A stretch of DNA of 64,000 nucleotides from an uncultured Chloroflexia bacterium (GCA_963726245.1 CAVSBT010000037.1:128001-192000), one strand, 5' to 3'. Shown: positions 26,816 to 49,268, numbered from the stretch's first letter. Notes: generated by a model not told the origin, from the letters alone. Made by a program: numbers and translations.

Positions 26816-28437
26816 ATGCGCGTTCCAGGGCAGCAGAGAAAGTCTTACATGTGGAGGTGGACGGCAGCGCTCGCGGGGTTGGCCGTCCTTGGTTTTGCGC
26901 TGGTGATGGCGGTGGTGGTCACGCCGGCCAGCAGCGTCCAGGCTGCCACCTTTACCGTGAACAGCGTTGCTGACACCGGCGACGCCGACGCTCGCCGACG
27001 CCAAGTGCGACGTCAACCTAGCGTACATCGGGCAACCAGTGCACCCTGCGTGCAGCCATCGAGCAGGCCAACAACCGACTCCGGCGGTTGGCCAACACCA
27101 TCACCTTCAGCTCGGCACCGGCACTCAACCATCACTCCCGGTGGGCGCCTATGACGCCCTCGGTGACGACGGCCTCACCATCAATGGGGAGCGGGACCAT
27201 CGTCATCAAAGGCGCTTCCTGCCATGCTGGAGGTCGACGCCGACAACGTCACCATCTCGCACCTGATCCTGAACGGCGACGCCGCCGGCGCAAACGGCAT
27301 CGTGGTGCGCGCCACCAACGACAGCTACCCACCTCACCGGCGTCGAGGTCAGGAAGTACACCGGGACGGGCATCGTCTTCAACGGCAACAACGACGACTT
27401 CGTCCTGGATACCGTCAATGTCCACGACAACACCGGCGACCGGCATAGACCTGGCCGCTGGTTCTGACGACGGCATCATCCGCAACAGCACCATCGAGGA
27501 CAACGGCGGCGGCGGGATCTACCTGAACGACGGCTCGGGCAACCAGATCCTCAACAACACCATCCAGGATAACGGCACTGGGCCGACACGACGACAACGG
27601 CATCGAGGCCACAGACCAGAGCGAGTTGACGCATCCTGGGCAACACCCATCAGCGACAACTACGACGACGCGATCCGGATCGAAGGCGCCGGCACCGGCC
27701 TGGTCACGATCAACAACAACAGCATCCACGTCGGCCAGGGTGGCATCGACCTCGAGGACGACTGCCACTGCGACGACGTCCATATCAGCGGCGATACCGC
27801 CATCCGAGTCCAACTGCTTCAGCGGCTCCCTGACCGCCGACGTCGAGTTCTACCTGGCAGAACGAAAGCGGCGACGACATCGAGGCCCAGTACAACTACT
27901 GGGCCGGCGACACGGACCCCAAAGACAAGATATGTGCCATCGGACCAGAACAACGTCTAATTGCGACGCGAGGCGGCGGTACCGCAGACGGCGACGTCGA
28001 CTGGAGCCCGGTGGCAAGCTCGTGCGCCGGTGGCCACGCGTCACACCCACGCCTACCACCGCCACGGGTAGCATCACACCCAGCTTGACGCCCACGTGAC
28101 GGGCACGCCGCCCACGTCGACGCCCACAGTGACGGGCACGCCGCCTACATCCACGCCCACGCCCACGAGCGCCATGGAGTCGGTGACGCTGGCGGGCGGC
28201 ACCTGCAACCCGGTGGCCAGCACCTACGCGGACGGCACGCCCATCGCCACCATCGCGGCAGGCGTCTCACCGTCGGGCATCCTCATCTCCATCTGGTGGT
28301 ACAACACCGGTTCGGGAACCTGGCTCGGCTACTCGGCCCAGTTCCCCGACCAGAGCGACTTGAGCAGCGTGGACCGCCTGGAGGCGATATTCATCTGCGT
28401 CAGCTCCGCAGGCACCTGGAGCCGGCCTATAATCTGA
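26816..28437 (+). CDS. secreted CSLREA-domain / parallel beta-helix protein with Pro-Thr linker and GCNP-type C-terminal domain (multiple frameshifts)
   Basis: Signal peptide VQA|ATFTVN, CTLRAAIEQAN, N/D/G-rich repeats, C-terminus ESVTLAGGTCNPV...SRPII. Confidence 0.8.
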
Positions 28438-28768
28438 GAGGAGCGGAACGGGCGCGACTCCTGACGCGAGAAGTCAGGGATTTCCAATGGGGGCGGCCGG
28501 TGGGCCGCCCCCATCCGTTAAGGCCTGCCTGCCGGCAGGCAGGAAGATCAGCAGGGAAGGAGCAAGACCCATGCGTGTTCGAAAGCTCACCCCTGCCTCT
28601 GGATTCTTGCCCGTCCGGGCTGCGGCCTGCCGGAGTATTGACAAGGGGCACCTTCTGCACTAAAGATAGGCGCGGTGGCGGGAGCAGGCCCGCCTAAGGC
28701 GGAAAGGCTGCGAGAGACAGGACCTAGCGTAGTTCACTAGCCCGTCAGGGCAAGGAGGGCCAAGCCTC

Positions 28769-30391
28769 ATGCGCGTTCCAGGGCAGCAGAGAAAGTCTGG
28801 CACGTGGAGGTGGACGGCAGCGCTCGCGGGGGTGGCCGTCCTTGCTCTTGCGCTGGTCGCGGCGGTGGTGGTCACGCCGGCCGGCAGGGTCCAGGCCGCC
28901 ACCTTTACGGTGAACCGGACTACCGACGAATCTGACAACGACGTTACCGACGGCGTGTGTGACTGGGACCGGCGACGACTGGCAACCAGTGCACTCTCCG
29001 TGCAGCCATCGAGCAGGCCAACGAAGACTCCGGGGTCGGCAACACCATCAGCTTCAGTATCACCGGCGGCGGCACCCACACCATTACCCCGGCGGGGAGT
29101 GCCTATGACCCCATTGTTGACGACGGCCTCACTATCAACGGCGCAGCAATATCGTCATCAAAGGCGCTTTCGCCACGCTGGAGATCGACGCCGACAACGT
29201 CACCATCTCCCACCTGATCCTGAACGGCGACGCCGCGGCCGGAAACGGCATCGTGGTGGACACCCCCAACGACGCTACCCACCTCACCGGCGTCGAGGTC
29301 AAGAAGTACACCGGGACGGGCATCATCTTCAGCGGCAACAACGACGACTTCATCCTGGATGCCGTCAATGTCCATGACAACGGTACGGTCGCCGGGCTCG
29401 GCATAGTCCTGGCCGCTGGTTCTGACGACGGCATCATCCGCAACAGTACCATCGAGGACAACAGCGTCGAAGGGATCTACCTGACCGACGGCTCGGGCAA
29501 CCAGATCCTCAACAACCAATCGAGGATAACGGCAGCCCTGACCGCGGCGACGGCATCGGGGCCGACAGCCAGAGCGAGTTGAGCATCCTGGGCAACACCC
29601 TGAACGATAACTTCGACGACGCGATCCGGATCGAAGGCGCCGGGACCGGCCTGGTGACAATCAACAACAACAGCATCCGCGTCGGCCAAGGCGGCATTGA
29701 CCTCGAGGCGGGCTGCAACTGCGACGACGTCCATATCAGCGGCACCACTGCTGCCGAGTCCAACTGCTTCAGCGGCTCCCTGACCTCCGACGTCGAGTTC
29801 TACCTGGCGAACGAAAGCGGTGCTGACATCGAGGCGCAGTACAACTACTGGGCCGGCGATACCGACCCCGACGAAAAGATATGTGCCGTGGATCAGAATA
29901 ATGTCGCGGACTGTGACCACGGCGGAGGCGATCCCCCAGACGGCGACGTCGACTGGAGCCCGGTAGCTTCGAGCTGTGCCGGGGTGGCTACGGTCACGCC
30001 CACGCCTACCATCACGGGTACCATCACGCCCACCCTAACACCTACGGTGACGGGCACACCGCCCACGTCGACGCCCACCAACACGGCGACGCCAACGGGT
30101 CCCACGGCCACGCCGACAACGGGCCCCATGGAGTCGGTGACGCTGGCGGGCGGCCACTGCAACCCGGTGATCAGCACGTACGCCGATGGCACGCCCATCG
30201 CCACCATCGCCGCGGGCGTCTCACCGTCCGGCATCCTCATCTCCATCTGGTGGTTCAACCCCGGTACGGGTGACTGGCTCGGCTACTCGCCCCAGTTCCC
30301 CAGCGTGAGCGACCTTGCCAATGTGGACCGCCTGGAGGTGATCTTCATCTGCGTTAGCTCCCAGGGTAACTGGAGCCGGCCCATAATATAG
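28769..30391 (+). CDS. tandem paralog of 26816..28437 (CSLREA/beta-helix + GCNP-type CTD; frameshifts)
   Basis: High DNA similarity along the gene; ends ESVTLAGGHCNPV...SRPII. Confidence 0.82.
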
Positions 30392-30511
30392 GGGAGCGGA
30401 ACGGGCTCGACTCGTGAGCGCGAGGAGTTGGGGGCTCGCGAAACGGGGGCGGCCCACCGGCCGCCCCCGTCCATTCAGGGAGGATAACTTAGCAGGGAAG
30501 GAGCAAGACCC

Positions 30512-31939
30512 ATGCGTACGCGAAAGCTCAGCCGCGCGGCGGCAGCAATTGTCTTGAGCACCCTCGGTGCGGCGCTGCTGGTCTGGCTGGCGGTGGTTCC
30601 AGCCACCCGAGTCCAGGCGGCTACTTTCACCGTCAACGTAACCACCGACGGCGGCGACCTGGCTGCCGACGGTGTCTGCGACTCGGACGCGGCGGGCGGC
30701 AACCAGTGCAGCCTGCGCGCCGCCATCCAGGAGGCCGACGCCTCGGCGGGCCAGGACGTCATCGCCATCGGCGTCGCCGGGCCCATCGTGCTCACCGGCT
30801 CGCTACCGCAGATTACGGATAACGGCCTTGTTATCACCGGGAGCGGCCAGCAGGTCAGCATGACCGCCCCTGGCATCGCCTTCTGAGGTCAACGCTGACG
30901 GCGTCCAGATCAACAACCTGGTCATCGACGGCTCGAACGTCGGCACCACGGGCATCAGGATCAGCGTCCACGACGGATGACCTGATCCTGGACGGCGTCA
31001 CGTCCGTGGCTTCACCAGTGACGGCTTCTGAGAACACCGGTGGCGGCGGCCAGCGCAATACCATCCGCAACAGCACCTTCACCGCCAACGCGGGCGACGG
31101 CATCGGGTTCACCGGCGGCAAAGATGACGTCGTATCTCGACAGCATCATCACCAACAACGGCCAGGCGGCCGACGGCCTGGAGGTGTCAACGAGGACGGC
31201 CTGGTCATCCAGGGCAACACCTTCTCAGGCAACTTCAACGCCCAGATCGCTGATCGGCAGCATGCAGGCCGGCCAGCACGTGTCTATCATCCAGAACAGC
31301 ATCACATCGGGCTCCGACGGCATCGTCATCGGTGCGGCGGTGAACGCGACGGCCGCCATCGACATCGGCCTCTCCGTCGCCAACCGCAACGTCTTCCGCG
31401 GCGCCATTGCCGCCCCGGCCGAGCAGCACCTGAGGAACCTGAGCCCCGCCAACATCAACGCCATCTACAACGACTGGGACGCCTACAATCCGGCCGCCAT
31501 CGAGGGCGAAATCTGCCACGATGGCGACGCGGGTTGCGGGCCCGGCGTGGTCAACTTTGATCCGTTCGTCGACACGCCCTCGCCCCTGCCCACCATCACG
31601 CCGACGCCCACGGTCACCGAGACGCCCGGTACCCCCACGGTAACGCCCACGGGGACGCCTGCCGCTACCGGCACGCCGGGAGCCGTGGAGACGTTGCCCC
31701 TGATAGCAGGCTGCAACCCGCTGGCCTGGACCGGGACCGACAACACGCCCATCGCCACCATCGCCGGCGCCGTCTCGCCGGCGGGCATTCTCGTGGCACT
31801 CTGGCAGTTCAACAACGGCACCTGGCTCGGCTACTCGCCTCAGTTCCCCGAAGTCAGCGACCTTCAGCAGATGAACCGTCTGGACGTTGCCTTCGTCTGT
31901 GTGAGTGGCGCGGGCACCTTCAGCCGTCCCGTGATCTAG
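30512..31939 (+). CDS. secreted CSLREA-domain / beta-helix protein with GCNP-type CTD (frameshifts)
   Basis: ATFTVNVTTD...NQCSLRAAIQEAD; ends ETLPLIAGCNPL...SRPVI. Confidence 0.82.
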
Positions 31940-32641
31940 GAGGCACAAAGGGCAGAGCTCACCAATCACGGGTCGGGGCGGTCGTGCGACCGCCCCGACC
32001 TTGTCCGGGGGACCCCTCCAAGGGTCGCCCAAGCTGCCGCCGCGGGACAGGCGGAAATTGTTTCGCAGTTTTTGTCTTTCGGGAAGTCCCTGCACGTCCA
32101 CCCTCGCCAAGGGAGCCCGCTCACCGCTGCGTCGGGCTTGGAGCGCTTCCAGACTCGTGCAGGAATCGGCAGAGCTGCCGGGTCAGGTGCGTCGGATCTC
32201 TCACGTGTCTTGAAACACTACACACGATGTCAACCTGCCCTCACTAGAGACAGCGTTACCTTCCGCGCAGCCCAGGGCCAACAGCTACGGACGCGCTCTG
32301 CCACACCATAGACGCTCTTCCTCCACCCCAGGCTCGGCCACCTATCTCACCAACGCCCTCGGCGCCGAACCAAACTCGCCTAAGTATCCACCGACCCCCT
32401 GGCACTCTCCACCTCCCCCGCGAAGCCCTTTCCGGCCTGTGCTGTTTTCACACTACGGAAGCCCATCCTCATCATCGGAACCCCATGAACGGCATGTCCC
32501 ACCACATCTATGACAACTATGAACGGGTGGAGGGGTGACGGGCAGTACCTGCCGATGCTACAATCCTTCCGGCCCATGTATTGAGCCACACTCAGCGGCA
32601 CTATTGTGGCACGCAATCCCCGTCCAAAGGAGGTGGGCTCG

Positions 32642-33151
32642 ATGGCTCGACTCGCATTAAGCGTTATTCTTACTAGTGTGTTCCTCATGGCGGCACTCAG
32701 CATGCTTAGAAATGGCCATGTGAACCCCGTGGCCCCTGTCTATGCTTGAGGAGGCCCTCCGCCGCCGACGGCGACTTCGGCGGCCGCCACGGGTTCCGTG
32801 GCACCCACAAGTACCGTAGTACCCACACGTATCGTGGCTCCCACGGCCATACCCACGCAAGCCCCGCAGCCGACATCAGCACCGTCTCCGGGCGCAACCG
32901 AGACGGTTCCGCTCATCGCGGGGTGTAGCCCTGTGGTCTGGACAGGCATACATGGTACGCCCATCGGCACCGTTGCTAGCGCCGTCTCACCGGCCGGGAG
33001 CCTCGTCGCGCTCTGGGCGTTTGACGCTGGTCTCTGGCTAGGGTACTCGCCTCAATTCCCGGAAGTCAGCGATCTGGCGCAGATGAATCGCCTGGACGTG
33101 GTCTTCGTCTGCGTCAGCACTACCGGCACCTTCAGCCGGCCCGTGATCTAG
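32642..33151 (+). pseudogene. signal peptide + Pro/Thr linker + GCNP-type CTD with in-frame TGA at 32747-32749
   Basis: AAAGGAGG RBS, MARLALSVILTSVFLMAAL...PVYA*GGPPPPT in the same frame as ORF 32798..33151. Confidence 0.7.
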
Positions 33152-33472
33152 GGGGCATCTGGGCCGGACCTCAGCAACAAGGACAAGTTCGGGGCGGCCA
33201 TACGGCCGCCCCGATTGATTCTCAGGGAAAGTGAGCGGCGCGGCTTTGGGCCCGGCTTACCTGCAAGGCGTGAAAAGACGACGCTGCTCAGGCCACTGCA
33301 ATGTGCTGGTACGTGTGTTCGCGTACGTCCGCCGCTGCCAGAAGCACAAGCAGGTTGTGTCGCATTTCGTCGCGTCCTGTCGCATCCAGGCGACGCGACC
33401 GTCCGAGACCCAGCTTGCAGCGGACTCGGCGTCGGGTTCGGACCCTGTCAGTGGTAGCTCCTGGCGATGCCG

Positions 33473-33871: not shown

Positions 33872-33872
33872 A

Positions 33873-35178: not shown

Positions 35179-35421
35179 TTACGTGGACTTGGCGAGCCGC
35201 AGCCTCAAAGCCGCGGCATGCTTGCAGACGCCACGGTAGGTGAAACCCGGGCAAGTGCAGGTGATGTGGCCAAAGGGGCTCGCGAAGAGCTCAAAGTAGG
35301 CGTCGGGCTCCACGCTCCGAGACCGAGCCAGGTAGCGGTCCGTGCCCGCCAGCTTCACCACCCGCACTCGCTCCGTGCGCGCCCGCTCCAGGGCCCTCAG
35401 CTCACGCTCCTCCGTGTCCAT
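35179..35421 (-). CDS. SWIM zinc-finger protein
   Basis: ITCTCPGFTYRGVCKHAAA (CxC-xn-CxH). Confidence 0.8.
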   Translation of the reverse strand: MDTEERELRALERARTERVRVVKLAGTDRYLARSRSVEPDAYFELFASPFGHITCTCPGFTYRGVCKHAAALRLRLAKST

Positions 35422-35518
35422 CACCGTTCCTCCCGTGGATGCAGCAAGGGTGTGACGGATCCTCGAGCCTGGGCTGATGCGGAAGAGCCAGCTCCTCGGG
35501 GATACCGCGGGCTGCCAC

Positions 35519-35779
35519 GTAAGCACTTGTGATGTTGGCCCGCACGAAGGGCCGCTCCAAGACCAGCATCTGGCTCAGCCGTGTCAGGCAGTTGGCCCCC
35601 ACGAAGTAGTCCCTCCGCGCCTCCATGTCCCGCAGCCCGTATAGGTAGTTCGGCAAGAGCCGACCCGCAGGCGTCACAGGTGGTGTCGCAGGGAAAGCGC
35701 AGCATCCCCCGAAAGCGCCGTAGCCTCTTCCCCTGTGCAAAGGCCTGCAGCCGGTCTCCTCATAGGTCATCGTCGTCAT
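35519..35779 (-). CDS. hypothetical protein (frameshifted, Cys-containing)
   Basis: GAGGAGG RBS before MTTMTYEETGC; coding signal split across frames. Confidence 0.4.
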
Positions 35780-36710: not shown

Positions 36711-36929
36711 GTGTCAACACCTAGGTTGACGCCTCGGGTAGCGCTGAAAGAGTGGCGGCGGCTGCGTGCCCTGTCACAAGAGGAACTGGCAAGGGCAGCG
36801 GGCATTCAACGCAGCACCATCGTGGACATCGAGAGCGGAAAGCGGTCTCCTCGGCCGAGCACGCTGAGAAGACTCGCGAAGGCGCTGAACATCAAGCCCG
36901 AGGGGCTCTTTGCGGATCCATTCGCGTAG
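36711..36929 (+). CDS. XRE-family HTH transcriptional regulator
   Basis: LSQEELARAAGIQRSTIVDIESGKRSPRPSTLRRLAKAL. Confidence 0.9.
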   Translation: MSTPRLTPRVALKEWRRLRALSQEELARAAGIQRSTIVDIESGKRSPRPSTLRRLAKALNIKPEGLFADPFA

Positions 36930-37745
36930 CAGAGGGGGGTGCCGGGCCACGTTTGCAGGTGCGAGGTCTGCGCTTCCGGCTGAATCCCGCTCCTGCCAAC
37001 GGAAGGCGCCCCGGCGTTCTGCCGAGGCCATCCATACTCGCCGGAAGGTAGGATCGGGCTTAGCCGCCTCTTCTAGCATGGGGCCGTACATGCGCTCAGC
37101 ACGCACGAAGCGCCGGTCGCTGTACTCATGGCCGTCCCAGGAACCGCCGCAGGTGACAAGGGTGACGGCATCATGACCGTTGATGCCGAAAACCTGGTCC
37201 CAGTTGATCTCATCCACCGGAGACTCCTGGTTCCAGACGACGGCATAGTAGTAGACGGTCTGGTCCGCCAGCCGCACTTCCACCTCGTCACCGGGCTTCA
37301 GCTGGTCCAGGTCCCAGAACACAGCCGGGCCGTAGTGGATATAGTCCACGTGGCCGGATAAGATGGCATTCCCTCCAAACCCAACTCGGTGCTCCTCCCC
37401 GGGATGGTACTCAGACATATCGTACACGGCGACAACTTCCGGGCCGCTGGGCATGGGCATGACCCCGTCGGTGTCCACGGTGTGCGGCTCCAGGGCAGCG
37501 TTAACGTCTATCTTGGGGATCAACAGCCTTTCAGGAGCAGCCCCGCTTGGCGGAACGGGGCTTTCCGTGGGCCAGGGAACAGCTGTCGCCGTCGGTTCAG
37601 TTACCAGCTGCCGCTGCGGCTTCTCTCCTCCTCGAAAGACACCCTGCGTTGAGACCACAACCAGGGCCGCACCCAGCAGCGCCGAAGCCAAAGGGGCCGC
37701 CAACAGCGGCAGTCTCCTCGACAGCGTTAGCTTCCATATCCGCAT
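36774..37745 (-). CDS. class F sortase (second copy; C-terminal ~90 aa extension doubtful)
   Basis: N-terminal TM, RLLIPKIDV, NAILSGHVDY, TLVTCGG...RRFVRAER. Confidence 0.9.
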   Translation of the reverse strand: MRIWKLTLSRRLPLLAAPLASALLGAALVVVSTQGVFRGGEKPQRQLVTEPTATAVPWPTESPVPPSGAAPERLLIPKIDVNAALEPHTVDTDGVMPMPSGPEVVAVYDMSEYHPGEEHRVGFGGNAILSGHVDYIHYGPAVFWDLDQLKPGDEVEVRLADQTVYYYAVVWNQESPVDEINWDQVFGINGHDAVTLVTCGGSWDGHEYSDRRFVRAERMYGPMLEEAAKPDPTFRRVWMASAERRGAFRWQERDSAGSADLAPANVARHPPLLREWIRKEPLGLDVQRLRESSQRARPRRPLSALDVHDGAALNARCPCQFLL

Positions 37746-37900: not shown

Positions 37901-38527
37901 TCAGACCCTCTCTGCCTTAGGCAGAGACGCCTCTCCTAGTGGCGTATACCGACGGTAGGCCGACACACCCGCCGTGCCCAGCAGTAGCAGTCCAAGCCCA
38001 GCGGCCATGTAGACCCACCAGGCCGTCCCGCTGCCACCGTCCAGGTAACCGCCCGTGCCCGTTATGACCCTAGGCGTTGGCGTTACCGGCGCCGGCGTGG
38101 AGGGCGGCGCCACCGTGGGCTGCACGGCCTGGCCGCCCAGGTCCAGCGACGTGAACTTGCCGCTGCTCCAGGTAGCGCTACCCGCCGGGTTGCCTCCGAC
38201 CATGAAGCTTACCGAGGCGCCCTCGGTGCCACACCCGGCCGTCTGTCCGCTTGCCACCACGTCCAGGACGTACGACGAGTCCGCCTTCACGGTCGTCTGG
38301 CCACAGACGGTATCGCCGATCGTGGCGCTGACCTGAGTTCCTGCCGCGGCCGCCGACCCGCCCTGGGTTACCTTGCCGAAGAAGCGGTTCGGCGGCGTCG
38401 GCGGCTGGGCGCTGACGCTCGCCACCAACAGCGACGAGATCACCGCCACAACTACGCCTGCCAGCACGCCCTTTTTCAGGGTCTTCCAGTCAAGAATCAT
38501 AGTATTGAATCCCTCCGTTGATTCCAT
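37901..38527 (-). CDS. small secreted protein with putative sortase sorting signal (VITGTGG-TM-RR)
   Basis: Signal peptide VSA|QPPTPPNRFFG, two Cys, PT linker, VITGTGG + hydrophobic helix + RR; directly upstream of the sortase. Confidence 0.75.
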   Translation of the reverse strand: MESTEGFNTMILDWKTLKKGVLAGVVVAVISSLLVASVSAQPPTPPNRFFGKVTQGGSAAAAGTQVSATIGDTVCGQTTVKADSSYVLDVVASGQTAGCGTEGASVSFMVGGNPAGSATWSSGKFTSLDLGGQAVQPTVAPPSTPAPVTPTPRVITGTGGYLDGGSGTAWWVYMAAGLGLLLLGTAGVSAYRRYTPLGEASLPKAERV

Positions 38528-38562
38528 TCCCCGGAGCTACCCCTTAGCGGAAGCCCCTGACT

Positions 38563-40457
38563 CTAGATCTTCGGCCGGCTAATGGTGCCGGGCGCATTCA
38601 TGCAAACGAAGATCGCGTCCAACTGGTTGACAGTCGTCAGGTCGCTGGCCTCCGGAGCCGCAGCCGAGAACCCCTGCCAGGTGCCCGACTCGGGGTCGAA
38701 CACCCAGACGGCGTCCAGCGCTTCGGGCGGCGCTACTCCCTTCGCCACCGTTTCGATTGGGGTGGCGTCGGGCCATGTCGCGGCCAGCGGGTTGCAGCCC
38801 GCCACCAGCTTCACCGATTCGCTCTCTGAAGGTCTCCAGCTTGACCACGCCAACGGCGACCACGTTGGGATGGCGGTCAAGGCGGCAGGTCAGCGTGAGC
38901 GTCCCTCCCTCCATCACCGCCTTCCCTGTGGGCACGATCTTTACCATAACATGCCCGGCAGGTCGCCAGCCAGGCCGCCCGTGGTGCCCGTCTGGGGCCA
39001 GATTATGAGGCCGCTTTGCACCGGATCCAGCGAGCACGAGACAGTCTCGTTGGCCATGGGCCGGAAGGACGAGTCGAGCGCCACAAACTTGAACTCGCCC
39101 CCTTCGGGACCTATGGCACCTCCAGGGGGCAGCTCCAGATACGTCCCCAGCAGCGGCTCACCGACGAAGGTGGCGTTGATGGTGCGCGGCGGAGACTGAC
39201 GCCGCCGCCCTGCTGAGCGGTGATGGTGGCCGTGCCGACGTCACCGTTGCCCAGCAGGAAGGTCGTGACGACGCCGTTGCGCCAGCCGTCGGCGTCACAG
39301 CCGCCCTTGAACGTAATCCCGCCATTGGGCTACCAGTCGGCCTTTCGCGAAAGCCACTGGAACCAGTAGTACAGGGCGTCCACGTCGAAGACGTTCACCG
39401 ACTTGCCCTGGCCCACAGTCAGTGGCCACGATGGGTGGGAAAAGATACTCCAGCGCCTGCCGCTAGATTGCTCGCGCCATTCTTGAGCGCCTGAGCGACG
39501 GGGCTCATAGAGAAAATCCCGAGATCGGTCTCAAAGCTGACGTAGTCGTCGAAGAGCGCTGCCGTGTTCCCGCCGCACCAGACATCCGGCAAGTCCAGGT
39601 CTGGGAGGCCCGTGCGGGATTGATGTCGAGCTGCTGGTGTTGCTCCCGTAGCCCTCAGCCGGCGGCCCGACGTCACCGTAGACGCTCGCCGTAGAGACCG
39701 TCATACATGTCGTCCAGGCCCTGCGCGCCGTCCTGATCCGGGTCAATCAGCGCCTGCTCGGTACTCGGCACAAGGGGAGCGCGACCGGTAACGTCGCAGT
39801 GGTAGGCCACGAGCAAAGGCTGCTCCTGGGCAGCCGTGCCGAGCGGCCCTGTGGGCCCAAAGGCCAGTATCGTGTCCACCACGACGATCTGCACCGAGCG
39901 CGCGTCGCCCGTCTCGTCCGTAGCCGTGACCAGGACGATCTCGTTCACGCCCTTTGTGTTGCCCAGCGTGGCCGCCGCGGCGTTAACGCGCACCGTCACC
40001 ACGCCCACAGCGGCATCCATGTCGGCGCCGCTGTTGTCCGACACCGTCAGCGTGTGATCGCCGTCGGCGTCGAAGGTGAGCGCCGGCGGCCCGCTGTTCT
40101 GCGGGTACAGCCTCGTCCATCTCGAAGGTGATGGCGCCGTATGGCTCCGGGTGCGTTCGCGGTTCATACAGCGTGCTCCCATCCACGTCAGGGCAGGGGC
40201 CAGTGTCGACCGGGAGCGCCTGGCGCGAAGCAGAACACTGCCACGATGCCCGGCTGCCCGGTGCCGATGATCGCCGGGATAGCCTGGTTGTTCAGTCCCG
40301 GCACAGCCGGTGCCGCCGATGGCAGCGCCGCAATACCGCCCGGGGCGCCCAGGCTGGCCTCTGCGCGCTGGGTGTGTCCCGCCGGGTGCAGGATTCCCAG
40401 CACCACCATGAGCGCCGCCACCAGGGCGATCACTCCTACTTTTCTGACATTACCCAT
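38563..40457 (-). CDS. large secreted S-layer-like protein with GCNP-type CTD (many frameshifts)
   Basis: Paralog of 41359..43243 (LGAPGGIAALPSAAPAVPGL, DVWCGGNT, DGWRNGVVTT); ends ESVKLVAGCNPL...SRPKI. Confidence 0.72.
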
Positions 40458-40693
40458 CAATGGCGCCTCCTTTCAGGACACGAAAAGCGCCGGACCACTC
40501 TTGGCCCATGACTAGACGCTTGCGGCCGGCAGGCCAGTCCGGACCTTCCGTTTCCCTGCGCCGCCGTCATCGGACATCTGGCGAGCCTTCCCGGGTAGGC
40601 TGACAGCACCGCCGGGAAGGCTCGCCCCGATTTCGTGGCCGCGCCTCCGCCCACAGGCGACCATGGTCGCCTCGAGCGGAGCCGCCTGCCGAT

Positions 40694-41257
40694 TTAGCGC
40701 GCGTTCCGGCGATAGGTCGCCACGCCCGCCGTGCCCAGCAGCAGCAGACCCAGGCCAGCAGCCATGTAGACCCACCAGGCCGTCCCGCTGCCACCGTCCA
40801 GGTAACCGCCTGTGCCCGTTATGACCTTGGGCGTTGGCGTTACCGGCTTCGGCGTCGCGGGCGCTGCCGTAGGCGGTGCAGCCTGTCCGGCGAGGTCCAT
40901 AGACGTGAACTTGCCGCTGCTCCAGGTGCCAGTTCCCGCCGGGTTGCCTCCCACCGTGAAGCTCACCGAAGCACCCTCGGTGCCGCACCCGGCCGTCTGT
41001 CCGCTGGACACCACGTCCAGGACATACGACGAGTCCGATTTCACGGTCGTCTGGCCACAGACGTTGCCGCCAATGTCGGCGCTGACGTTCGTGCCCGCCG
41101 GGGCCGCCGAGCCACTCAGGGTTACCTTGCCGAAGAAGCGGTTCGGCGGCGTCGGCGGCTGGGCACTCACGCTCGCCACCATCATGGACGAGATAAGCGC
41201 CACTACCGCGGCTACTAGCGCGCCCCTTCTCAGGGCCTTCCAGCTAATGATCATCAC
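40694..41257 (-). CDS. paralog of 37901..38527, putative sortase substrate
   Basis: QPPTPPNRFFGKV...KVITGTGGYLDGGSGTAWWVYMAAGLGLLLLGTAGVATYRR. Confidence 0.78.
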   Translation of the reverse strand: MMIISWKALRRGALVAAVVALISSMMVASVSAQPPTPPNRFFGKVTLSGSAAPAGTNVSADIGGNVCGQTTVKSDSSYVLDVVSSGQTAGCGTEGASVSFTVGGNPAGTGTWSSGKFTSMDLAGQAAPPTAAPATPKPVTPTPKVITGTGGYLDGGSGTAWWVYMAAGLGLLLLGTAGVATYRRNAR

Positions 41258-41358
41258 TCACGGTCCCTCTCGTCTGATTCCTTTCTCGGAGCGTCAGCTC
41301 CGTTGAAGGCTGCAGGGTGTGGGGACCGCTGCCGGCCCCCACACCCTGCCACTGAGTC

Positions 41359-43243
41359 CTAAATCACCGGCCGCCCGATTGTGGCAGCCGCGTTCACGCA
41401 AACGAAGATGGCGTCCAGCCGGTCCACGGTAGCCAGGTCGCTGACCCCCGCGGGAGCGGTAGGCGAGAAGCCCTGCCACATGCCCGTCGCCGGGTCGAAC
41501 TTCCAGATGGCTTCCAGGGCCTCTGCCGGCGCCACCGCGCCAGACACCGTCGCGATCGCTGTCGCGTCGGGCCACGTTGCGGCCAGCGGGTTACAGCCCT
41601 CAACCAGCGCCACCGACTCCAGGTTGGGAGTCTGGCTCAGACTGACCTTGTCGCTCGCCGAGACGCTGCGGTCGCGGTCCAGCGTGCAGGTGATGGTCAA
41701 CTCCTCGGCTGCGACCACGGACTTGCCCGTCGGTATCAGCTTGAAGGTGACCTCACCCGGGTCGTGTCCGAGGTGACTAGCGCCTGTGGTCGCGGTCTGG
41801 TTGAGGATCGCCAGGGCGCCGCCCGTGGGATCCACCGTGCAGGTCACGGCCTCATTCCCCACCGGCCGGCCGTCCTGGTCCACCACGGCCACCGTGAAGT
41901 TGTCGCCGGTTGTGCCGATGATCGCCGGCGCCGTGATGAAGAGGGAGAGCGCGGCCTCGCCCTCGAAGGTCACGTTGATCGTGCGAGCCGGGCTGACGCC
42001 GCCGCCCTGCTGGGCGCTGATCGTGGCGACGCCGACGTTGCCGTTGCCCAGGAGCTCGGTGGTGACGACGCCGTTGCGCCAGCCGTCGATGTCACAGCCG
42101 CCCTGGACACCCACGCCGAATTGACTGAAGTCCCACTCCGACCACACGAGGAGGGCATCGATGTCGAAGGTGTCGATTTCCTGACCCTCGCCGCAGGCGG
42201 CGTCAATCATGGGCGGGAAGAACCAGTCTAGGAAGTTGGCCAGGTTGGCCGAGGTCTGCTGAACGATTACGGCGGCAGGGTCAACCGAGAAGAGGCCCTT
42301 GTCCGTCTGGAAGTCGACGAAGTCATCGAACAGCGCACTCGTGTTACCGCCACACCAGACGTCCGGAATCGCCACCGGAGGTATCGTGCCGTTGGGGGCG
42401 TCTCTGCCCAGCAGAGTGTTGCTGCCCCAGCCGGCGCCCGGGCCGCCGCCAAATTGCCAGTTGGGCCCGTAGAGGCCGTCGTACATGTCGTTCAGCCCCT
42501 GCTGCTGATCGTCGTTCCCTGCGCTACCCTCGGCAATCCACTGAGCAGGTGTTGGGCACGAGCGTGCTCCGCCCGAGCACGTCACAGTGGTAGGAGACGT
42601 AGACCGGCTGATCCTGGGAGGCGGTGCTGATCTGACCGCTGGGCCCCCAGGCCAGCATGGTGTCCACGATCACGATGTTGACCGTGCGCACGTCGCCCGT
42701 GTCGTCCGTGGCGGTGACCTTGACGATCTCGTTAACGCCCTTGGTGTTGCCCTGCGTGGCCGCGGCGGCATTCACGCCTGTCGCCACCACGCCGATGGCC
42801 GAGTCCATGTCGGCGCCGCTGTTGTCCGTCACCACCAGGGTGTCAGACCCGCTCGCAGCCCAGGTGGCCATGGGCACCGCCGCCGCTGGTGGGGTAGACC
42901 TGGGTCAGCTCCAGGGTAATGGGGCCCAATAGTCGGTGTCCACGACTTCCCCCCGGACAATCCCCTGCCACGTAGGGCAGGTCTCGATGTCCCGCAAGGT
43001 CCGGCGCCGTGCGCAGAAGACGGCCACGATGGCCATCTGGCCGGTGCCGATGATGGCCGGGAGGCCCTGGTTGGCGAGGCCGGGGACGGCCGGAGCCGCC
43101 GAGGGCAACGCCGCGATGCCGCCCGGCGATCCCAGGTCGGCCTGGGCCACCGGCGTCTGTGCCGTTGGCCGGAGCGCCGCCAGGACGACGAGGAGAGTCG
43201 CCATAACGGCCAGTATTCCCAGTTTCTTTATGCTAATGCTCAA
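41359..43243 (-). CDS. large secreted S-layer-like protein with GCNP-type CTD (frameshifts ~42560-42950)
   Basis: AAAGGAGGAG RBS, signal peptide AQA|DLG, acidic beta-rich body, ends ESVALVEGCNPL...GRPVI. Confidence 0.78.
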
Positions 43244-43875
43244 GGGTTGCTCCTCCTTTGGGCGGATTTGCGGCTGCGGGCTTGCCGCTCAGAGACCTCG
43301 GGCGCGAACGTGGGCCGGACCGACCTCTCCCGGTCGGCAGGCCCATCTCCTCCTTCACCATAGGTCACGGCTCGCCGCCACCGCATTCCCTTGCTTTCTC
43401 CTTATCTTTCACAATCACTGACTTGACGAGTCTGCTAGCTACAGAGTGACCGACCCCCACCCCTGATCCACCGGAGCCGGCCTGCTCCGACGGCCTCGTT
43501 CCGGGTGGAAGCGAGGCCACTTCTGAAGTTAGCTACATCGCATCCCCCCTTCCTGCTCCCCGCCATCCTTGCCAGGGAACCGGCGGGCTCCATGTTCCGA
43601 AAATTCTCAGCGCGCCAACGGGCAGACGGGTCAAAACACAATTCCCCTACCCCCGCCAGCTCGCAACGTTCCGTCTCTAAGACAGCAGCGCTCTAGCGGG
43701 CGCGCACACACAATTTGGCAACCGCAAAAGCGCCGTTGCCACAACCCTTAAAACGCCGGGCCGGAGGAAAAGGTTAACGCCGGGTGGCGGCTGTTAACTC
43801 TGGGCGTAGGTGACGCGTTCTACATAATACAAGCGTTGGGTACGGGCCGCTGGACGGCCGGGGACAAAAGCGATT

Positions 43876-44523
43876 ATGCTATGCACAGTATGGGCACACC
43901 GGCTCTTCCCCCTCAGGAGGCCTCCGAGCGCCGATTCTGCCTTCTCCGACCTGCCGACGGACGGACAGGAGAGGGACATGGTCCAGCGCGCCCGCTCCGG
44001 GGACCAGCCGGCCCTGGGCGAGATCTACGACCTCTATTTCCCCCGCATCTACCGCTACGTCCTGGCCCGCACCGGCAACACAGCCGAGGCGGAGGACGTC
44101 ACGGAGGACGTCTTCATCAAGGTCCTGGGCGCCATCGGCGGCTTCGAGTGGCGAGAGGCGCCTTTCGCAGCCTGGATCTTCCGCATCGCCCACAACCAGC
44201 TCATCAGCCACAGTCGCAAGAACGGCGTCCGTCGCCAGGATACTCCCCTGGCAGACACCATCGCTGACCCGGCTCCGGACCCGCTCATCCGCGTCGAAAA
44301 CAGGCTTTACTTCGAGCAGATCCTCGATGTCGCGCGTGTCCTCCCTCAGGCCCAGCGCGAAGTGCTCTGGCTGCGCTTCGCCGTCGGCCTCTCCATTTGT
44401 GACACGGCACGCACCCTGGGGAAACAAGAAAACAACGTTAAGGTCCTCCAGCACAAGGCGATCGCCAGGCTCCAGAAGCTCCTGGGCCAGTCTGAGCTGG
44501 AAAGGCCGAATATATTAGGATAG
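43876..44523 (+). CDS. ECF sigma-70 factor
   Basis: IYRYV...AEDVTEDVF...FAAWIFRIAHN; QREVLWLRF...NVKVLQHKAIARL. Confidence 0.92.
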   Translation: MLCTVWAHRLFPLRRPPSADSAFSDLPTDGQERDMVQRARSGDQPALGEIYDLYFPRIYRYVLARTGNTAEAEDVTEDVFIKVLGAIGGFEWREAPFAAWIFRIAHNQLISHSRKNGVRRQDTPLADTIADPAPDPLIRVENRLYFEQILDVARVLPQAQREVLWLRFAVGLSICDTARTLGKQENNVKVLQHKAIARLQKLLGQSELERPNILG

Positions 44524-44533
44524 CGCGACCGAT

Positions 44534-45967
44534 ATGAAGCAGCGCTTCGAAGACATACTGGCGGAGTGCCTGGAGGCGGCCAACACGGGCCGGCTCACCA
44601 TCGATGAGTGCCTGGCCCTCTATCCCCATCTGCGCGACCGCCTGGAGCCGCTTCTACGCTTCGGGCACCAGTTGAGCCAGGCCTCTTTCCCGGAACCCGA
44701 CTCAACGTTCCGCGAAGCCGCGCGTGAGCGCTTCCTCGCCGCTGCCCAGGCCGGTGCCGTGGCCCCACAGCAGCGGCGGAGGCTGCTGCCCGCGCTGCAC
44801 ATGCCCCGCCGCTGGAGCTGGCGCCCGCTGTTCTCCGCTCAAATGGGCCGCCCGGTCGGCTGGCGGAGGGCCGCTCTCACCATGGCTGCGGCGCTGCTCC
44901 TTGGCTGCATCGGCTTCTCATCTTTCGCCGTGGTCAGCGCCGGCGACAGCCTGCCGGGCGACTGGCAGTACCCTGTCAAGCGGCTCACCGAGCGCGCCCG
45001 CCTCACCTTCACCTTCGGCGAGGACGCCCGCCGCGACTACCGCATCAGCCTCGCGGAGGAGCGACTGCACGAGGTACAGGGCCTGGCCTCCCGGCAAGAC
45101 AGAATCAGCGAATCCACCCTCGCGCAGCTCGTGGACGCCACTGAGCCTTTGGTCAAGGCTCTGGAGCCCGACTCCGTCCCCACCGACCAGATCCAGCGCA
45201 TCACAGACCTGACGGCCGAGCAGACCGCCACCCTTGACCGCGTGGGACCGCTGGTCGAGAGCAAGGCGGCCGACGAGCTGGCGGAGGCCAGGGTCGTCTC
45301 CAGCGAGGGCTACGATAAGGCTGTGGTGGCGCTGGCCGCAGCACGCGCTGAGGGGCCTGAGGAAACCCCGGGCCTCACGACTCCAGCAACCGGCACCCCT
45401 TCGGCCGGCGCCGGTACCGCATCACCAACGCCGGGCTCAAGCCCCGGCGCGGCAGCCAGCCCTTCGCCCACGCCGGCCGCCGGCGCCAGCGCTTCCGCCA
45501 CGCCCACGCCGCAGCCCACGCCTGTTCCGGGCGAGGCCACACCCGCGGCGGCTGAGCCCACTCCGCTACCGGGCGAGCCCACGCCCGCAGCGCCGGAGCC
45601 CACCGCGACACCGTCCCCTCCAGAACGGCCCGTGACTTTCCTGCCCGACGACAACACCGCCGGCCTGAAGTGGGACCTGCTCACAATCGGCGCCTTCTCG
45701 ATGAGGGCGCCCGCCGACGGGAGCGCAGATTGGGCGGTGTCCACGCTGAACGGCGCCAGCGGCAATCGGATCCTGGTCGGACACTTCCAGAGCGGCGGCT
45801 TTGACGCCAGCATCACGGTGCAAGTCAACACGGGACAGGCCTCCATCCGCGTGCTCGCCGAAGGCAAGATTCAGGAAGTGAGCGCCGAGGACGTGCGCAC
45901 TCTGGTGCCTGGCCCTGTCGCCGACGTCATCCTCCACGTGTTAGAGTCCATCCACGCCGGATCATAG
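44534..45967 (+). CDS. DUF5667-type membrane protein, probable anti-sigma factor
   Basis: ILAECLE...ECLALYP N-terminus, TM, SLPGDWQYPVKRLTE...AEERLHE, Pro/Thr-rich linker. Confidence 0.8.
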   Translation: MKQRFEDILAECLEAANTGRLTIDECLALYPHLRDRLEPLLRFGHQLSQASFPEPDSTFREAARERFLAAAQAGAVAPQQRRRLLPALHMPRRWSWRPLFSAQMGRPVGWRRAALTMAAALLLGCIGFSSFAVVSAGDSLPGDWQYPVKRLTERARLTFTFGEDARRDYRISLAEERLHEVQGLASRQDRISESTLAQLVDATEPLVKALEPDSVPTDQIQRITDLTAEQTATLDRVGPLVESKAADELAEARVVSSEGYDKAVVALAAARAEGPEETPGLTTPATGTPSAGAGTASPTPGSSPGAAASPSPTPAAGASASATPTPQPTPVPGEATPAAAEPTPLPGEPTPAAPEPTATPSPPERPVTFLPDDNTAGLKWDLLTIGAFSMRAPADGSADWAVSTLNGASGNRILVGHFQSGGFDASITVQVNTGQASIRVLAEGKIQEVSAEDVRTLVPGPVADVILHVLESIHAGS

Positions 45968-46027
45968 GAGATCCCCTTTGGCCGAGGCGCCGCCCGTGAA
46001 GCGGCACAGCACCCATTCGAGAAGGCC

Positions 46028-46543
46028 ATGAGAAGTATTGGGCTTGTCTTGATAGCAGTGGCGGTTGTCCTGTCTGCCGCCGCTTGCGGTGGCGGCGGGG
46101 CAGACACTGGTGGAACGCCTGGCTCCACTGCCTCTCCTGCTCCCACCACCTCTCCCGGCCCAACCGCGACGCCTCGCCGCGCCGCGGGCCCCGCCTCGCT
46201 CTGCCAGCAGTCTCAGCAGCCTCTCCCCTCCTACAACGTCCAGGTCACTGCCCGCTGGAAGGGCAAGGACCGGGTCGTTGTCGACGGAAGCGCCAACCTG
46301 CCCGGTCCGGGCACCGTGAACTACCTGATCTGCCAGGATGGGCAGGTATCCGGCTCCCTGATTTGGGCGCAGAATCCCACCTTCAAGGACGGCAAGATCC
46401 ACGCCGAATCCAAGCTCGTCGAATCCCAGGCTGGGCCGGTTTTCGACCCCAACGCCCACCTCACCGTGGTGCTGTCCGTCCTCGGAGAGATCCAGATGCC
46501 TTACTTCACCGTCAGTGTGCCCGTGGAGGGCAAGCCCGAGTAG
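46028..46543 (+). CDS. hypothetical lipoprotein
   Basis: LSAAAC lipobox, PT linker, beta-rich domain. Confidence 0.65.
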   Translation: MRSIGLVLIAVAVVLSAAACGGGGADTGGTPGSTASPAPTTSPGPTATPRRAAGPASLCQQSQQPLPSYNVQVTARWKGKDRVVVDGSANLPGPGTVNYLICQDGQVSGSLIWAQNPTFKDGKIHAESKLVESQAGPVFDPNAHLTVVLSVLGEIQMPYFTVSVPVEGKPE

Positions 46544-46626
46544 GCGCGTCTTCGGAAACACAAGGGAGAGGGCTTTCAACCCTCTCCCTTTTTCCATCGC
46601 GATGAAGCGGCCGGGCCCGCCGGCCC

Positions 46627-47607
46627 TCAGACGATTGGCCGCACAAAGGCGCCGGGGCCGGTCACACAGACGAAGACCACATCCAGGAAGTTCTTCGTCG
46701 TCAGGTCGCTGGCCTCGGGATAGGCCGGCGAGTAACCGAGCCAGCCAGTGGCCTCAAGCTCCCACAGCGCCTCCAGGTTGCCTGACGGACCCACCGCCCC
46801 GGCAATAGTCCCGATGGGCGTGGCGTCGGCATAGGTAGTGGCCACAGGGTTGCAGCCTGCAGCGAGGTCTACAGCCTCAAATCCCGGCGGCAGCGGCGTG
46901 GGCGTGGCGCCCGGGACCACCGGCGTCGGTCCCGGGCCTCCCGGCGTCGGCGAAGCGGCTGGCGGCGGCGTTGCCGTCGGCCCAGGCGTGACGGGCGTGG
47001 AAGTGGGGCCCGGCCCGACGCCTTCGCAGTCTATGGTGGCGTCGGCCAGGGTGGTAGGGAGGCTGACGCCGCCCGCCCCCAGCGTGATGGTGAATGTCCC
47101 GCCTTGAGGAGAGTCCCCCGAGTTTACCAGGTGCAGCGTAGCCGGGCCTGCGGCCATGCACTGGAAAGTGGCTATCACCGTCTCGCCGGTGGCGTTCGTG
47201 GTGCCCGAAGCACTAGCGGACCCACCCAAGAGCCGGGTACCCACCGGGGTCACCACGGCGTTTGCGGTAGTGCCGCCCAGCCCGGTGTAGTGCCAGCTCT
47301 CGAGTGTCGTGTCGCCGTTGATGTCGTCCGTGGGGATGAACGTCAGGCCCGCGTGGTCCACCACCAGGTTATAGCCTGCCCATGGCGTGCTCGCGTCGGT
47401 AATGTCAAAGCTGACCTGGAAGGGCACGCCCACCGGCTGCGTCGCGGTGGCCTGGATGCCGGGCGCGTTGACGTCGGCGTTTACAGCCATAGCGTTGTCC
47501 GGGGCCGCCACTACCGCCGTTCGGCCGGCTAGAACACCGCCGACGGTCAGCGCTGCAACCAGGACCACCCACAGTCCTCTCTGCACCATGTCAACCCTCT
47601 CTTTCAC
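46627..47607 (-). CDS. secreted cohesin-like domain + PT linker + GCNP-type CTD
   Basis: NAMAVNAD...WAGYNL...FQC...ADATIDC; ends EAVDLAAGCNPV...VRPIV. Confidence 0.78.
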   Translation of the reverse strand: MKERVDMVQRGLWVVLVAALTVGGVLAGRTAVVAAPDNAMAVNADVNAPGIQATATQPVGVPFQVSFDITDASTPWAGYNLVVDHAGLTFIPTDDINGDTTLESWHYTGLGGTTANAVVTPVGTRLLGGSASASGTTNATGETVIATFQCMAAGPATLHLVNSGDSPQGGTFTITLGAGGVSLPTTLADATIDCEGVGPGPTSTPVTPGPTATPPPAASPTPGGPGPTPVVPGATPTPLPPGFEAVDLAAGCNPVATTYADATPIGTIAGAVGPSGNLEALWELEATGWLGYSPAYPEASDLTTKNFLDVVFVCVTGPGAFVRPIV

Positions 47608-47619
47608 ACGGAAGCTCCG

Positions 47620-48249
47620 TCAACCTGCGCAGGTCACCGAAGCGTCCTTGACCTCGGTGGCGATGGTGAAGCCCTGGTACGCCAGCAACGTACTTCCGGA
47701 CACAGTTTCGGACGGCGTTAGCAAGTGGATGGTGCTGGTCCCCTGTCCCACGCAATGGAAGGTGAGCCTGTTAAGCGGCCCCTGGAAACTGGTGTTACCC
47801 TGGACGCGGGCACAGCCTGTGAACATCGTATTCTCCATCACCGTTGGGGTCGCGCAGAGGTTCAGCTCCTCCGGCATCAGATGCACCTGGGAATCATAGG
47901 CCAGCACGGCCGGGTCCCACTGCGCATTGAACTGGTAGCCCTGGTAGCCGGGTCCTGCGTTCAGCACCACGACGTCTACCTCGAACGGGGTCGGGCCCGT
48001 CACCGTCCGGCTAGCCTCGATCCCTCCCCCGGCGACGACGTCCACCCCCATCGCCGCCTCGTAGACCGCCGGTGTCGGAGGGAACGTGGGAGTCCGAATC
48101 ACGGCGGCGCCGGTGCCTTCTGGAACCCCGCCACCGGTTGGCGTCGGCCCAAGTGCCGGCTGCTCCCCACCACCGCACGCCCCCAGCGCGACAGCGAGCA
48201 ACGACAGCCCCGCCAGTGCCCACCAGCCGTTCAAGGTGAGCTTCTTCAC
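47620..48249 (-). CDS. lipoprotein with cohesin-like domain
   Basis: LGAC lipobox; AMGVDV...YQGYQFNAQWDPAVL...LTFHCVGQGTSTIHL...DASVTC. Confidence 0.75.
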   Translation of the reverse strand: MKKLTLNGWWALAGLSLLAVALGACGGGEQPALGPTPTGGGVPEGTGAAVIRTPTFPPTPAVYEAAMGVDVVAGGGIEASRTVTGPTPFEVDVVVLNAGPGYQGYQFNAQWDPAVLAYDSQVHLMPEELNLCATPTVMENTMFTGCARVQGNTSFQGPLNRLTFHCVGQGTSTIHLLTPSETVSGSTLLAYQGFTIATEVKDASVTCAG

Positions 48250-48273
48250 CAGCCATCTCCTCCTTATCAGCGT

Positions 48274-49268
48274 CTACACCAGCGGTCGCACGAAGGTGCC
48301 CGGGGCGTTGACGCACAAGAATACCACGTCCAGGAACCGCGCTGTCGCCAGGTCGCTGGCCTCGGGATACTGAGGAGCGTAGCCTCGCCAGAGGCCTGCG
48401 TCGAACGCCCACATCGCCCCCAGGATGTCCGCCGGCGAGATGGCGGCGGCCAGCGTCTGCACCGTGGTGCCGTCCGGGTAGGTGACTGTGACGGGATTGC
48501 AGACGGCGGCAAGATCCACCGTGTCCGCCTGGTCCGGCGGCGGAGTCGGCGCTGGTGTAGGCGTCGGCCCCGCTGGCACCGGCGTTGCCGTGGGGCCCGC
48601 CGGCACCGGCGTTGCCGTAGGCTCCGCTGGCACGGGCGTCTCCGTGGCCCCCCCTCTACCGTCGGCGTCGGCGTGGCTTCCTGCGCGCACGACGGCGGTG
48701 GCGGCGAGCCGCCGCCTATGGCAATGGAGTCGTTCACCACGTCCGAGGGGATAGCGCCACCGAGAGAGTTCGCGAGGCTCCAGTGGAAGATGCAGAGCGA
48801 GCTGCTGCCGTTGGCCAGGGCCGTGAACTGGATGAATGACAGCGGGCCGGAACCGCTCGGAGGCTGTGGCTGTTCTCCGCTGGTCAGGCATGCGAACCAG
48901 ACCGTGCCGTCCGGGATGGGGACGTCTATTGTGGTGTCGCCGTTCTGGTCGATCCCCGGCGGCTGGCTAAGCACACAGCTCGGCGTCCGCCCGGTGCCGC
49001 CCAGGAACGAGCCATCTGTGACGCTGTCGAGGCGTAGCAGCCCGGGGTCGTAGGAAAGACGCCACTCGTAGGCGCCCAGGTTCGTCACGTCCTGAACGTC
49101 GATCCTGACCACGACGGAATCGCCCACCGACGCCGTGTGGGGCGAGACCACCTGCACCGTGGCCGACTGCCCCAGGGCCGATCCGCCCATCGAGGCGAGG
49201 GCGGCCAGCCCCACGCCAATTGCAGCAGCGATAGACCAGGCTAATGATTTCCGCACCCGCAAACTCAT
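48274..49268 (-). CDS. secreted cohesin-domain protein + PT linker + GCNP-type CTD (frameshift ~48650)
   Basis: VGDSVVVRIDVQDVTNLGAYEWRLSYDPGLL...GSGPLSFIQF; ends DTVDLAAVCNPV...VRPLV. Confidence 0.8.

Follow-up and report, generated by a model that had tools for sequence, protein, structure and literature searches.

Domain copies, candidate anchor proteins and sortases at the locus

The window analysed here, a stretch of 64,000 nucleotides from an uncultured Chloroflexia bacterium (GCA_963726245.1, CAVSBT010000037.1:128001-192000), contains eight genes whose products end in the same unnamed domain of about 85 residues. Translation confirmed all eight copies. Copies 1 to 4 lie on the plus strand at 28174..28437, 30128..30391, 31685..31939 and 32900..33151, and copies 5 to 8 on the minus strand at 38563..38825, 41359..41620, 46627..46880 and 48274..48525; each forms the C-terminus of the gene of the same number. 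All of them could be aligned (eight-sequence alignment A1) and were matched by the hidden Markov model (HMM) of the domain, with an E-value (E) of 6e-42 for copy 1. A strict regular expression recovered six of the eight, copy 7 among them, and copies 5 and 6 were obtained by translation in the correct frame.

The domain was 84–87 residues long in all eight window copies, which shared 45–84% identity with copy 1 and 20 invariant columns in A1, including C11, C75, W41 and the terminal R-P. A stop codon followed directly after each copy, and the ends read R-P-[VIKL]-[IV]. No hydrophobic stretch was present in any of the eight, in agreement with the absence of a transmembrane (TM) helix noted in the first-pass annotation. 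The HMM detected eight additional copies in the same genome outside the window; four of these were N-terminal or had sequence after the domain, and some stood alone. Because of these further genomic copies and the 924 database representatives described below, the eightfold repeat is far beyond chance.

The proteins that carry the domain differ in their bodies. Gene 1 (26816..28437, plus strand) encodes a signal peptide, a CSLREA-type parallel beta-helix body, a Pro/Thr linker and the domain, and gene 2 (28769..30391, plus strand) is its paralogue with 84% DNA identity. Gene 3 (30506..31939, plus strand) has a beta-helix body followed by a Pro/Thr linker and the domain, and gene 4 (32642..33151, plus strand) consists of a signal peptide, a Pro/Thr linker and the domain, with an in-frame TGA at 32747-32749. 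Gene 5 (38563..40451, minus strand) encodes a body of ∼590 amino acids (aa) with a weak Big_1-like match and then the domain, and gene 6 (41359..43243, minus strand) is its paralogue. Gene 7 (46627..47607, minus strand) has a signal peptide, a cohesin-like body, a Pro/Thr linker and the domain; the same arrangement was found in gene 8 (48274..49268, minus strand), whose cohesin matched PF00963 with an E of 3e-7. A Pro/Thr linker before the domain was present in six of the eight proteins and missing from those of genes 5 and 6. A hydrophobic, signal-like N-terminus was read by eye from the translations of all eight genes, which agrees with their proposed secretion; as single open frames, only gene 7 could be confirmed.

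Genes 5 and 6 are each followed by a gene for a small anchor protein. One of them (40694..41257, minus strand, 187 aa) lies just downstream of gene 6 and is the proposed sortase-anchored socket; the second copy (37901..38500, minus strand) lies just downstream of gene 5. These proteins of 187–199 aa were composed of a signal peptide, a mature N-terminus QPPTPPNRFFG, a two-Cys beta-sandwich, a Pro/Thr linker, and a tail that reads V(I/V)TGTGGYLD...WW.Y followed by a hydrophobic stretch and YRR. The putative sortase substrate peptide is TPTPKVITGTGGYLDGG. The sandwich was modelled with a predicted local distance difference test score (pLDDT) of 84-90, and it weakly resembled transthyretin/CnaB-like sandwiches (best Foldseek E 9e-4).

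Two class-F-like sortase genes also lie in the window. The one at 36774..37745 (minus strand, sortase domain ∼37089-37529), which follows the second small anchor gene, matched the NCBIfam class_F_sortase model with an E of 3.6e-25 (88.4 bits). Its product is 46% identical to that of the other (25535..26236, minus strand), which is divergent from gene 1 at a conserved position and matched both Pfam Sortase (E 1.6e-25; 89.7 bits, passing the cut-off of 26.6) and class_F_sortase (E 4.9e-35, 120.4 bits). Because the small protein carries a sortase-type tail and its gene adjoins that of a class-F-like sortase, it is probably fixed to the wall.

Position, cargo and distribution of the domain family

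The domain proved to be unnamed, as had been proposed, since its HMM matched no characterised family in Pfam, NCBIfam or the PDB. None of the eight copies matched a Pfam family at E<0.01, dockerin PF00404 and SLH PF00395 included. No NCBIfam sorting-domain match was obtained, and flexitail NF041520 was not among the four weak NCBIfam matches at E<=1; the best PDB sequence match by profile had an E of 0.62. An AlphaFold2 model of the domain, computed with 14 sequences, reached a pLDDT of 96.6 and showed six strands and one short helix. In searches with this model, Foldseek returned no chain at E<=1e-3 (best 0.82), and among 48,161 chains VIA-align found none with Z>=5, the best having Z 4.4 with a root-mean-square deviation of 3.1 A over 66 aligned residues; a lack of anything beyond such weak and unrelated matches is no proof of a new fold.

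When 1.84 billion representatives were searched with the profile, 924 matched at E<=1e-3, of which 539 reached E<=1e-10. The named matches were called 'hypothetical protein', and the sole match with an organism came from a Dehalococcoidia metagenome-assembled genome (MAG). With a single-copy query, one locus in genome_contigs was found, in an uncultured Chloroflexi MAG. Within its own order the domain occurred in 6 genomes out of 93, with 8-30 matches each; the carriers represent three genera in the family of the window, plus both genomes of a second family. It was detected in none of 400 other genomes, which form an even sample across the phylum. The genome sets are samples, and one of the 93 genomes (G458) is unpublished. 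Literature searches on class F sortases in Chloroflexi, on sortases, cohesins and dockerins of Chloroflexota, on Dehalococcoidia sortases, and on CSLREA and flexitail proteins turned up no account of the domain or the system.

The claim that the domain always forms the extreme C-terminus held for the window copies and failed for the family, as it did for four of the eight extra genomic copies. Among 298 copies in 245 proteins, 121 were N-terminal, 116 C-terminal, 15 stand-alone and 46 inner. The N-terminal copies sat just behind the signal peptide, and the inner ones were mostly the second of a terminal tandem. Tandem copies were found in 53/245 proteins, and the stand-alone copies (15/245) were whole small secreted proteins. 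Of the 209 proteins starting with Met, 162 had an N-terminal hydrophobic segment and only 2 a C-terminal TM-like segment.

Conservation across the family separated the core of the domain from its end. Both Cys, invariant in the window as the first-pass annotation had stated, were kept together with Trp40 in 100% of 166 family copies. With regard to the putative kinship with 'L..GWNL' domains raised in the first-pass annotation, no Cys-to-Trp variant was seen among the best 150 proteins, and a scan of this genome for 'GWNL'-type motifs gave four matches, none in a secreted beta-domain. The terminal R-P, which had been called invariant, was so in the eight window copies; in C-terminal copies of the family R was kept in 78% and P in 96%, and in N-terminal copies R was kept in only 8%. 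Neither Lys nor any other nucleophile-like residue was conserved in the 166 copies. The domain as a nucleophile donor for the sortase was rejected, as no Lys is conserved.

The suggestion that the domain is a sorting signal was not borne out. A C-terminal sorting or secretion signal, removed or covalently attached by a dedicated machine (of the type IX secretion system, PEP-CTERM or LPXTG-like type), would account for the C-terminal position and the R-P-hydrophobic end of all eight window copies, and the locus does contain two sortase genes. Yet 121 of the 298 copies are N-terminal just behind the signal peptide, 46 are inner and 15 stand alone; the domain has neither a hydrophobic stretch nor a basic tail, R-P is not kept in N-terminal copies, no nucleophile-like residue is conserved, and the model predicts a confident globular fold. 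We consider such a signal very improbable. Judged from the positions across the family and from the conservation of R-P by position class, the domain is taken to be a binding module, and a C-terminal sorting signal is excluded.

The cargo was unrelated and extracytoplasmic, and it varied from protein to protein, as predicted from the window. It comprised CSLREA/beta-helix proteins, S8 proteases, GH5, GH114, metallo-beta-lactamase-fold, cohesin, PKD, Big_1 and DUF11 domains, Peripla_BP_6 (branched-chain amino-acid binding), DsbA/Thioredoxin_4, and BsuPI and chagasin inhibitors. Proteins that must remain at the cell are among them, and the Peripla_BP_6 cargo is a solute-binding protein.

These features could also suggest an envelope or glycan binder (SLH-, LysM-, WxL-like or like a carbohydrate-binding module) for a lineage-specific wall polymer, an S-layer or a substrate polysaccharide. 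A terminal position on tethers, the tandems (53/245) and the stand-alone copies (15/245) are typical of polymer binders that act by avidity; several conserved aromatics lie on one face; GH5, GH114 and S8 proteins are classical carriers of carbohydrate-binding modules; and a lineage-specific polymer would fit the narrow distribution and the high copy number in each genome. On the other hand, neither sequence nor fold (Foldseek, VIA-align) matched a known binding module, and the solute-binding, DsbA-like and protease-inhibitor cargo fits a substrate-binding module poorly. Under this explanation the sortase-anchored neighbour would reflect mere co-regulation of surface genes. We regard it as unlikely, although a real contender, for reasons that also involve the neighbour itself.

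Predicted docking of the domain on the small anchor protein

It was found that the window genome and three others (G001, G007 and G019) shared the gene order of a ∼590-aa domain protein, the small protein and a sortase, flanked by two to four beta-helix domain proteins and a second sortase. This conserved locus spans four genomes, three genera and two families. Of the 6 genomes that carry the domain, 5 had a close orthologue of the small protein (E<=3e-24), compared with 0/87 others. The 120 listed homologues were 65-100% identical to the window copy, so that the small-protein family is far tighter in mutual likeness than the domain family; PPTPPNR was kept in 99/120 of them, TGTGG in 105/120 and the basic tail in 120/120.

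For prediction of a complex, the anchor ectodomain (residues 33-128, eight-row alignment) was paired with the domain (24-row alignment), for which copy 6, the first row of alignment A4, was the chain folded. The interaction prediction score from aligned errors (ipSAE) was 0.65, 0.70 and 0.71, and that of the best of three controls was 0.00. The partner had a pLDDT of 89-90, and the contacts agreed between runs. The ipSAE mark is met by 116/157 solved complexes and 2/215 mismatched pairs, which is a rough calibration here since custom alignments were used. The predicted interface was formed on the domain side by G8, C9, W39, W48, G50, P56, F72 and C74 (gene 6 numbering) and on the anchor side by P34-P38, R40, F42, V79, D81 and G115-F117. 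Six of the domain residues (G8, C9, W39, G50, P56 and C74) were conserved whatever the position of the copy (N-terminal, C-terminal, stand-alone or inner), and the anchor residues were conserved within the small-protein family. Both domain Cys contacted anchor residue 115 in the model, which places the pair close together and is consistent with a disulfide between them.

The last residues of the domain lay outside the predicted interface, and R-P was poorly kept outside C-terminal copies; the idea that the RP-hydrophobic end serves as a recognition strand is therefore not supported. As for the envelope or glycan binder, the predicted protein partner occupies exactly the conserved face, and the invariant QPPTPPNRFFG of the small protein would be left unexplained by that alternative.

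Sandwich and domain were also found in the same polypeptide, in 8/150 representatives. In P0150, P0042, P0136 and P0050 the domain replaced the sortase-type tail behind the sandwich, and in P0007 domain and sandwich alternated twice, with QPPTPPNRFF directly after each domain.

We favour the reading that the domain docks varied secreted proteins non-covalently onto the small wall-anchored protein of the same cluster, and we give it an even chance. The domain would be a small, disulfide-stapled, beta-rich module that can occupy the N- or the C-terminus of a secreted protein, in many cases preceded by a Pro/Thr tether, and its docking target the small, highly conserved beta-sandwich protein, bound without a covalent link. 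A face formed by the Cys pair, Trp39, Trp/Phe48, Gly50 and Phe/Trp72 would clamp QPPTPPNRFFG and the adjoining anchor strands. A class-F-like sortase would in turn process the small protein and fix it covalently to the cell wall, the presumed final address, via its TGTGG/hydrophobic/basic tail. The outcome would be the display of beta-helix proteins, cohesins, proteases, solute-binding and DsbA-like proteins and protease inhibitors. Surface retention, one of the functions suggested in the first-pass annotation, is supported by the terminal position, the unrelated extracytoplasmic cargo, the near absence of a second anchor, and a predicted partner with a sortase-type tail.

The fused proteins suggest a variant in which domain and sandwich form head-to-tail, non-covalent chains that grow into fibres or a lattice from a base fixed by sortase, with single-domain proteins capping or decorating them. 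Fused sandwich-plus-domain proteins without a membrane tail do occur (the G004 protein and P0150), P0007 alternates the two modules, and contacts of the predicted kind would be able to form in trans from one fused protein to another. Chaining nevertheless appears improbable to us, because fusions make up only 8/150 representatives and the contact in fused proteins may be intramolecular.

Several observations weigh against docking on the wall-anchored small protein. The complex model gives model confidence and not a measurement, and part of that confidence may stem from packing within single chains, learnt from the fused proteins. The genomes behind the co-occurrence counts are related, and these counts are not independent. 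Distant matches to the sandwich were found in 42/93 genomes, including one weak match in G458; as the sandwich is a common inner module elsewhere, there and in the protease of locus L019 described below, its fusion with and adjacency to the domain could be mere co-occurrence. The small anchor genes number one to three per genome, compared with 8-30 domain copies. In G004 (93% complete, 18 copies) the only form is a sandwich-plus-domain fusion that lacks a membrane tail, and G023 (85% complete, 8-9 copies) gave no match to the small anchor protein. Because these two genomes lack the anchored form, the small anchor protein may not be the universal partner of the domain, and their possession of the domain without an anchored partner speaks for an envelope or glycan binder. 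The sortase side has its own difficulties. TGTGG is not a canonical LPXTG motif, and other likely sortase substrates of the genome carry LPxxG (LPVTG, LPRAG). The match of the small protein to NCBIfam GVDTG_CTERM was weak (E 0.0075, below the cut-off). Class F (NF033748) was the best-scoring class for both sortases, with both scores (120.4 and 88.4 bits) below its cut-off of 166.

Docking through a terminal module onto a wall-anchored protein has a precedent. In Ruminococcus flavefaciens, a dockerin or XDoc docks onto ScaE, a sortase-anchored single cohesin. The likeness of the proposed arrangement to cohesin-dockerin pairs lies in a small terminal module on unrelated secreted proteins, which would plug into a wall-anchored socket; in a socket gene clustered with a sortase; in few sockets for many plugs; and in some proteins that carry both. 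The components differ. No homology is apparent, since neither plug nor socket has a Pfam dockerin or cohesin match, and no dockerin family was listed in any of 150 representatives at E<=1e-5. Dockerin is a Ca-binding helical pair, whereas the plug is rich in beta strands, contains two Cys and is also found N-terminally, and the socket is a transthyretin/CnaB-like sandwich, as far as its weak fold matches indicate. True cohesins and dockerins coexist in the genome, and cohesins are themselves cargo of the domain. In function the proposed system would correspond to dockerin bound to a sortase-anchored cohesin, although the folds involved are unrelated.

Other retention systems resemble parts of it. 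SLH domains, which bind pyruvylated wall polymer and are known from Gram-positive anchoring scaffoldins and S-layer proteins, are likewise terminal modules for non-covalent retention of many cargoes, cohesin proteins included; in contrast, the domain described here has a predicted protein partner and no SLH match. Within the order, SLH occurred in only 2/93 genomes, this one not among them, and so was uninformative as a complementary anchor. The end of the small partner protein is built like an LPXTG-type signal, from a short motif, a hydrophobic stretch and a basic tail, and class-F-like sortases are encoded next to it, whereas the 85-residue domain has none of these and the partner's motif is TGTGG. 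Flexitail NF041520 is also a Chloroflexota-specific tail on CSLREA/beta-helix surface proteins, but none of the eight copies matched it at E<=1. Among class F sortases is the Propionibacterium acnes enzyme (reviewed in PMC8225981).

Reading frames, neighbouring genes and implications

Seven of the eight domain-carrying genes were interrupted. Frame changes were counted by tblastn with intact database homologues and with G001, a genome of the same genus in which the syntenic cluster is intact (open frames of 333, 594, 456, 489, 499 and 619 aa). At least four were found in gene 1, where the tblastn frames ran 2>3>1>3>1 against the intact homologues P0043 and P0221, and at least four in gene 5; genes 2 and 3 had three each, gene 6 had one near 42546-42560 and gene 8 one between 48621 and 48663. 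The sole intact frame of the eight was that of gene 7. The frame-changing indels were one base each and lay outside homopolymers. Long high-GC3 frames covered 67% of the genome and 16-49% of this part of the contig, indicating that the frame damage is local. Contigs of four other metagenomes (90-99% alike), which come from relatives and not from the window's strain, differed by one base at 30883, 30967, 31000, 31031 and 31135, coinciding with the frame-change sites of gene 3. In each public run, 0.14 or less of the words sampled from 26700-33200 was present. It is likely that the frame changes are assembly errors. Altogether ∼16 single-base frame changes clustered in the paralogous surface-protein genes of the window, at 26800-33200 and 38500-43300.

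Gene 4 has a paralogue elsewhere in the genome (G000 contig C27, locus L001), with 85% DNA identity over 532 bases, and the two share an in-frame TGA at the same codon (32747-32749 in gene 4; ∼3838-3840, minus strand, in C27). The TGA stands after the signal peptide (...NPVAPVYA) and before the Gly/Pro/Thr linker, and the downstream domain is well conserved in both genes. Read-through or recoding, a nonsense mutation predating the duplication, and an assembly artefact shared by the two are all possible. A 35-aa query with the N-terminal peptide of gene 4, run without a positive control, found no orthologues in five related genomes.

Three further genes lie among those with the domain. Between genes 7 and 8, a lipobox-type protein of 209 aa (47620..48249, minus strand) has an LGAC N-terminus and a cohesin-like body and carries no copy of the domain. 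Its body is homologous to that of gene 7 (27% identity, E 4e-8), and on sequence grounds it would be the gene 7 cargo with another anchor. An ECF sigma factor (43876-44523, plus strand) and a DUF5667 putative anti-sigma protein (44534-45967, plus strand) are located inside the cluster, and both are conserved in G001.

The sandwich was also observed outside the cluster. Locus L019 (G001 contig C54, 1258-3720, minus strand) encodes an 821-aa S8 protease with an inner sandwich module, which precedes thrombospondin-type-3/dockerin-like Ca-binding repeats. Judging by this arrangement, the sandwich would also be a spacer in dockerin-tagged proteins of the window's genus. As for sortases, a third one is encoded at ∼74746-75791 on contig C44 of G000. 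The neighbouring protein has a canonical C-terminal LPVTG motif followed by a hydrophobic stretch and basic residues, and further likely sortase substrates in the genome carry LPRAG or LPAAG. Sortase motifs in this genome thus seem to follow the pattern LPxxG, from which TGTGG in the small anchor protein departs.

The surface-protein island continues over 49593-62600, mostly on the minus strand, with large secreted proteins of 585, 356, 340, 869 and 934 aa that do not carry the domain, one of them with DUF11. Cohesin-like stretches, matched by a G001 cohesin protein, were found at 53960-54235, 55647-55832 and 62107-62571. A Mu-like or rve-type transposase (62754-63998, minus strand) is located at the window end, and an open reading frame with a SWIM zinc finger (35182-35574, minus strand) lies between genes 4 and 5, in the poorly coding gap at 33.2-36.7 kb. 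Both hint at mobile-element activity around the island.

The novel part of the proposed system would be its non-homologous components, as plug-and-socket surface display itself is already known. It could represent an independent invention of the cellulosome plug-and-socket principle, by which an uncultured Dehalococcoidia clade displays dozens of enzymes, binding proteins, inhibitors and true cohesins, and in which proteins with both parts could chain into longer non-covalent scaffolds; we hold this tentatively, rating it somewhat short of an even chance. If docking on the small anchor protein is correct, a domain present on 8-30 secreted proteins in each genome would gain both name and function. 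It belongs to a clade of uncultured Chloroflexota from sediments and wetlands whose envelope biology is barely charted. For class-F-like sortases outside Actinobacteria, a candidate substrate and a role would be available for the first time. The compact, non-homologous docking pair (∼85 + ∼95 residues) would join the few natural surface-display systems, and such pairs are in demand for protein engineering. In these metagenomes, the domain marks hypothetical proteins as surface-exposed.

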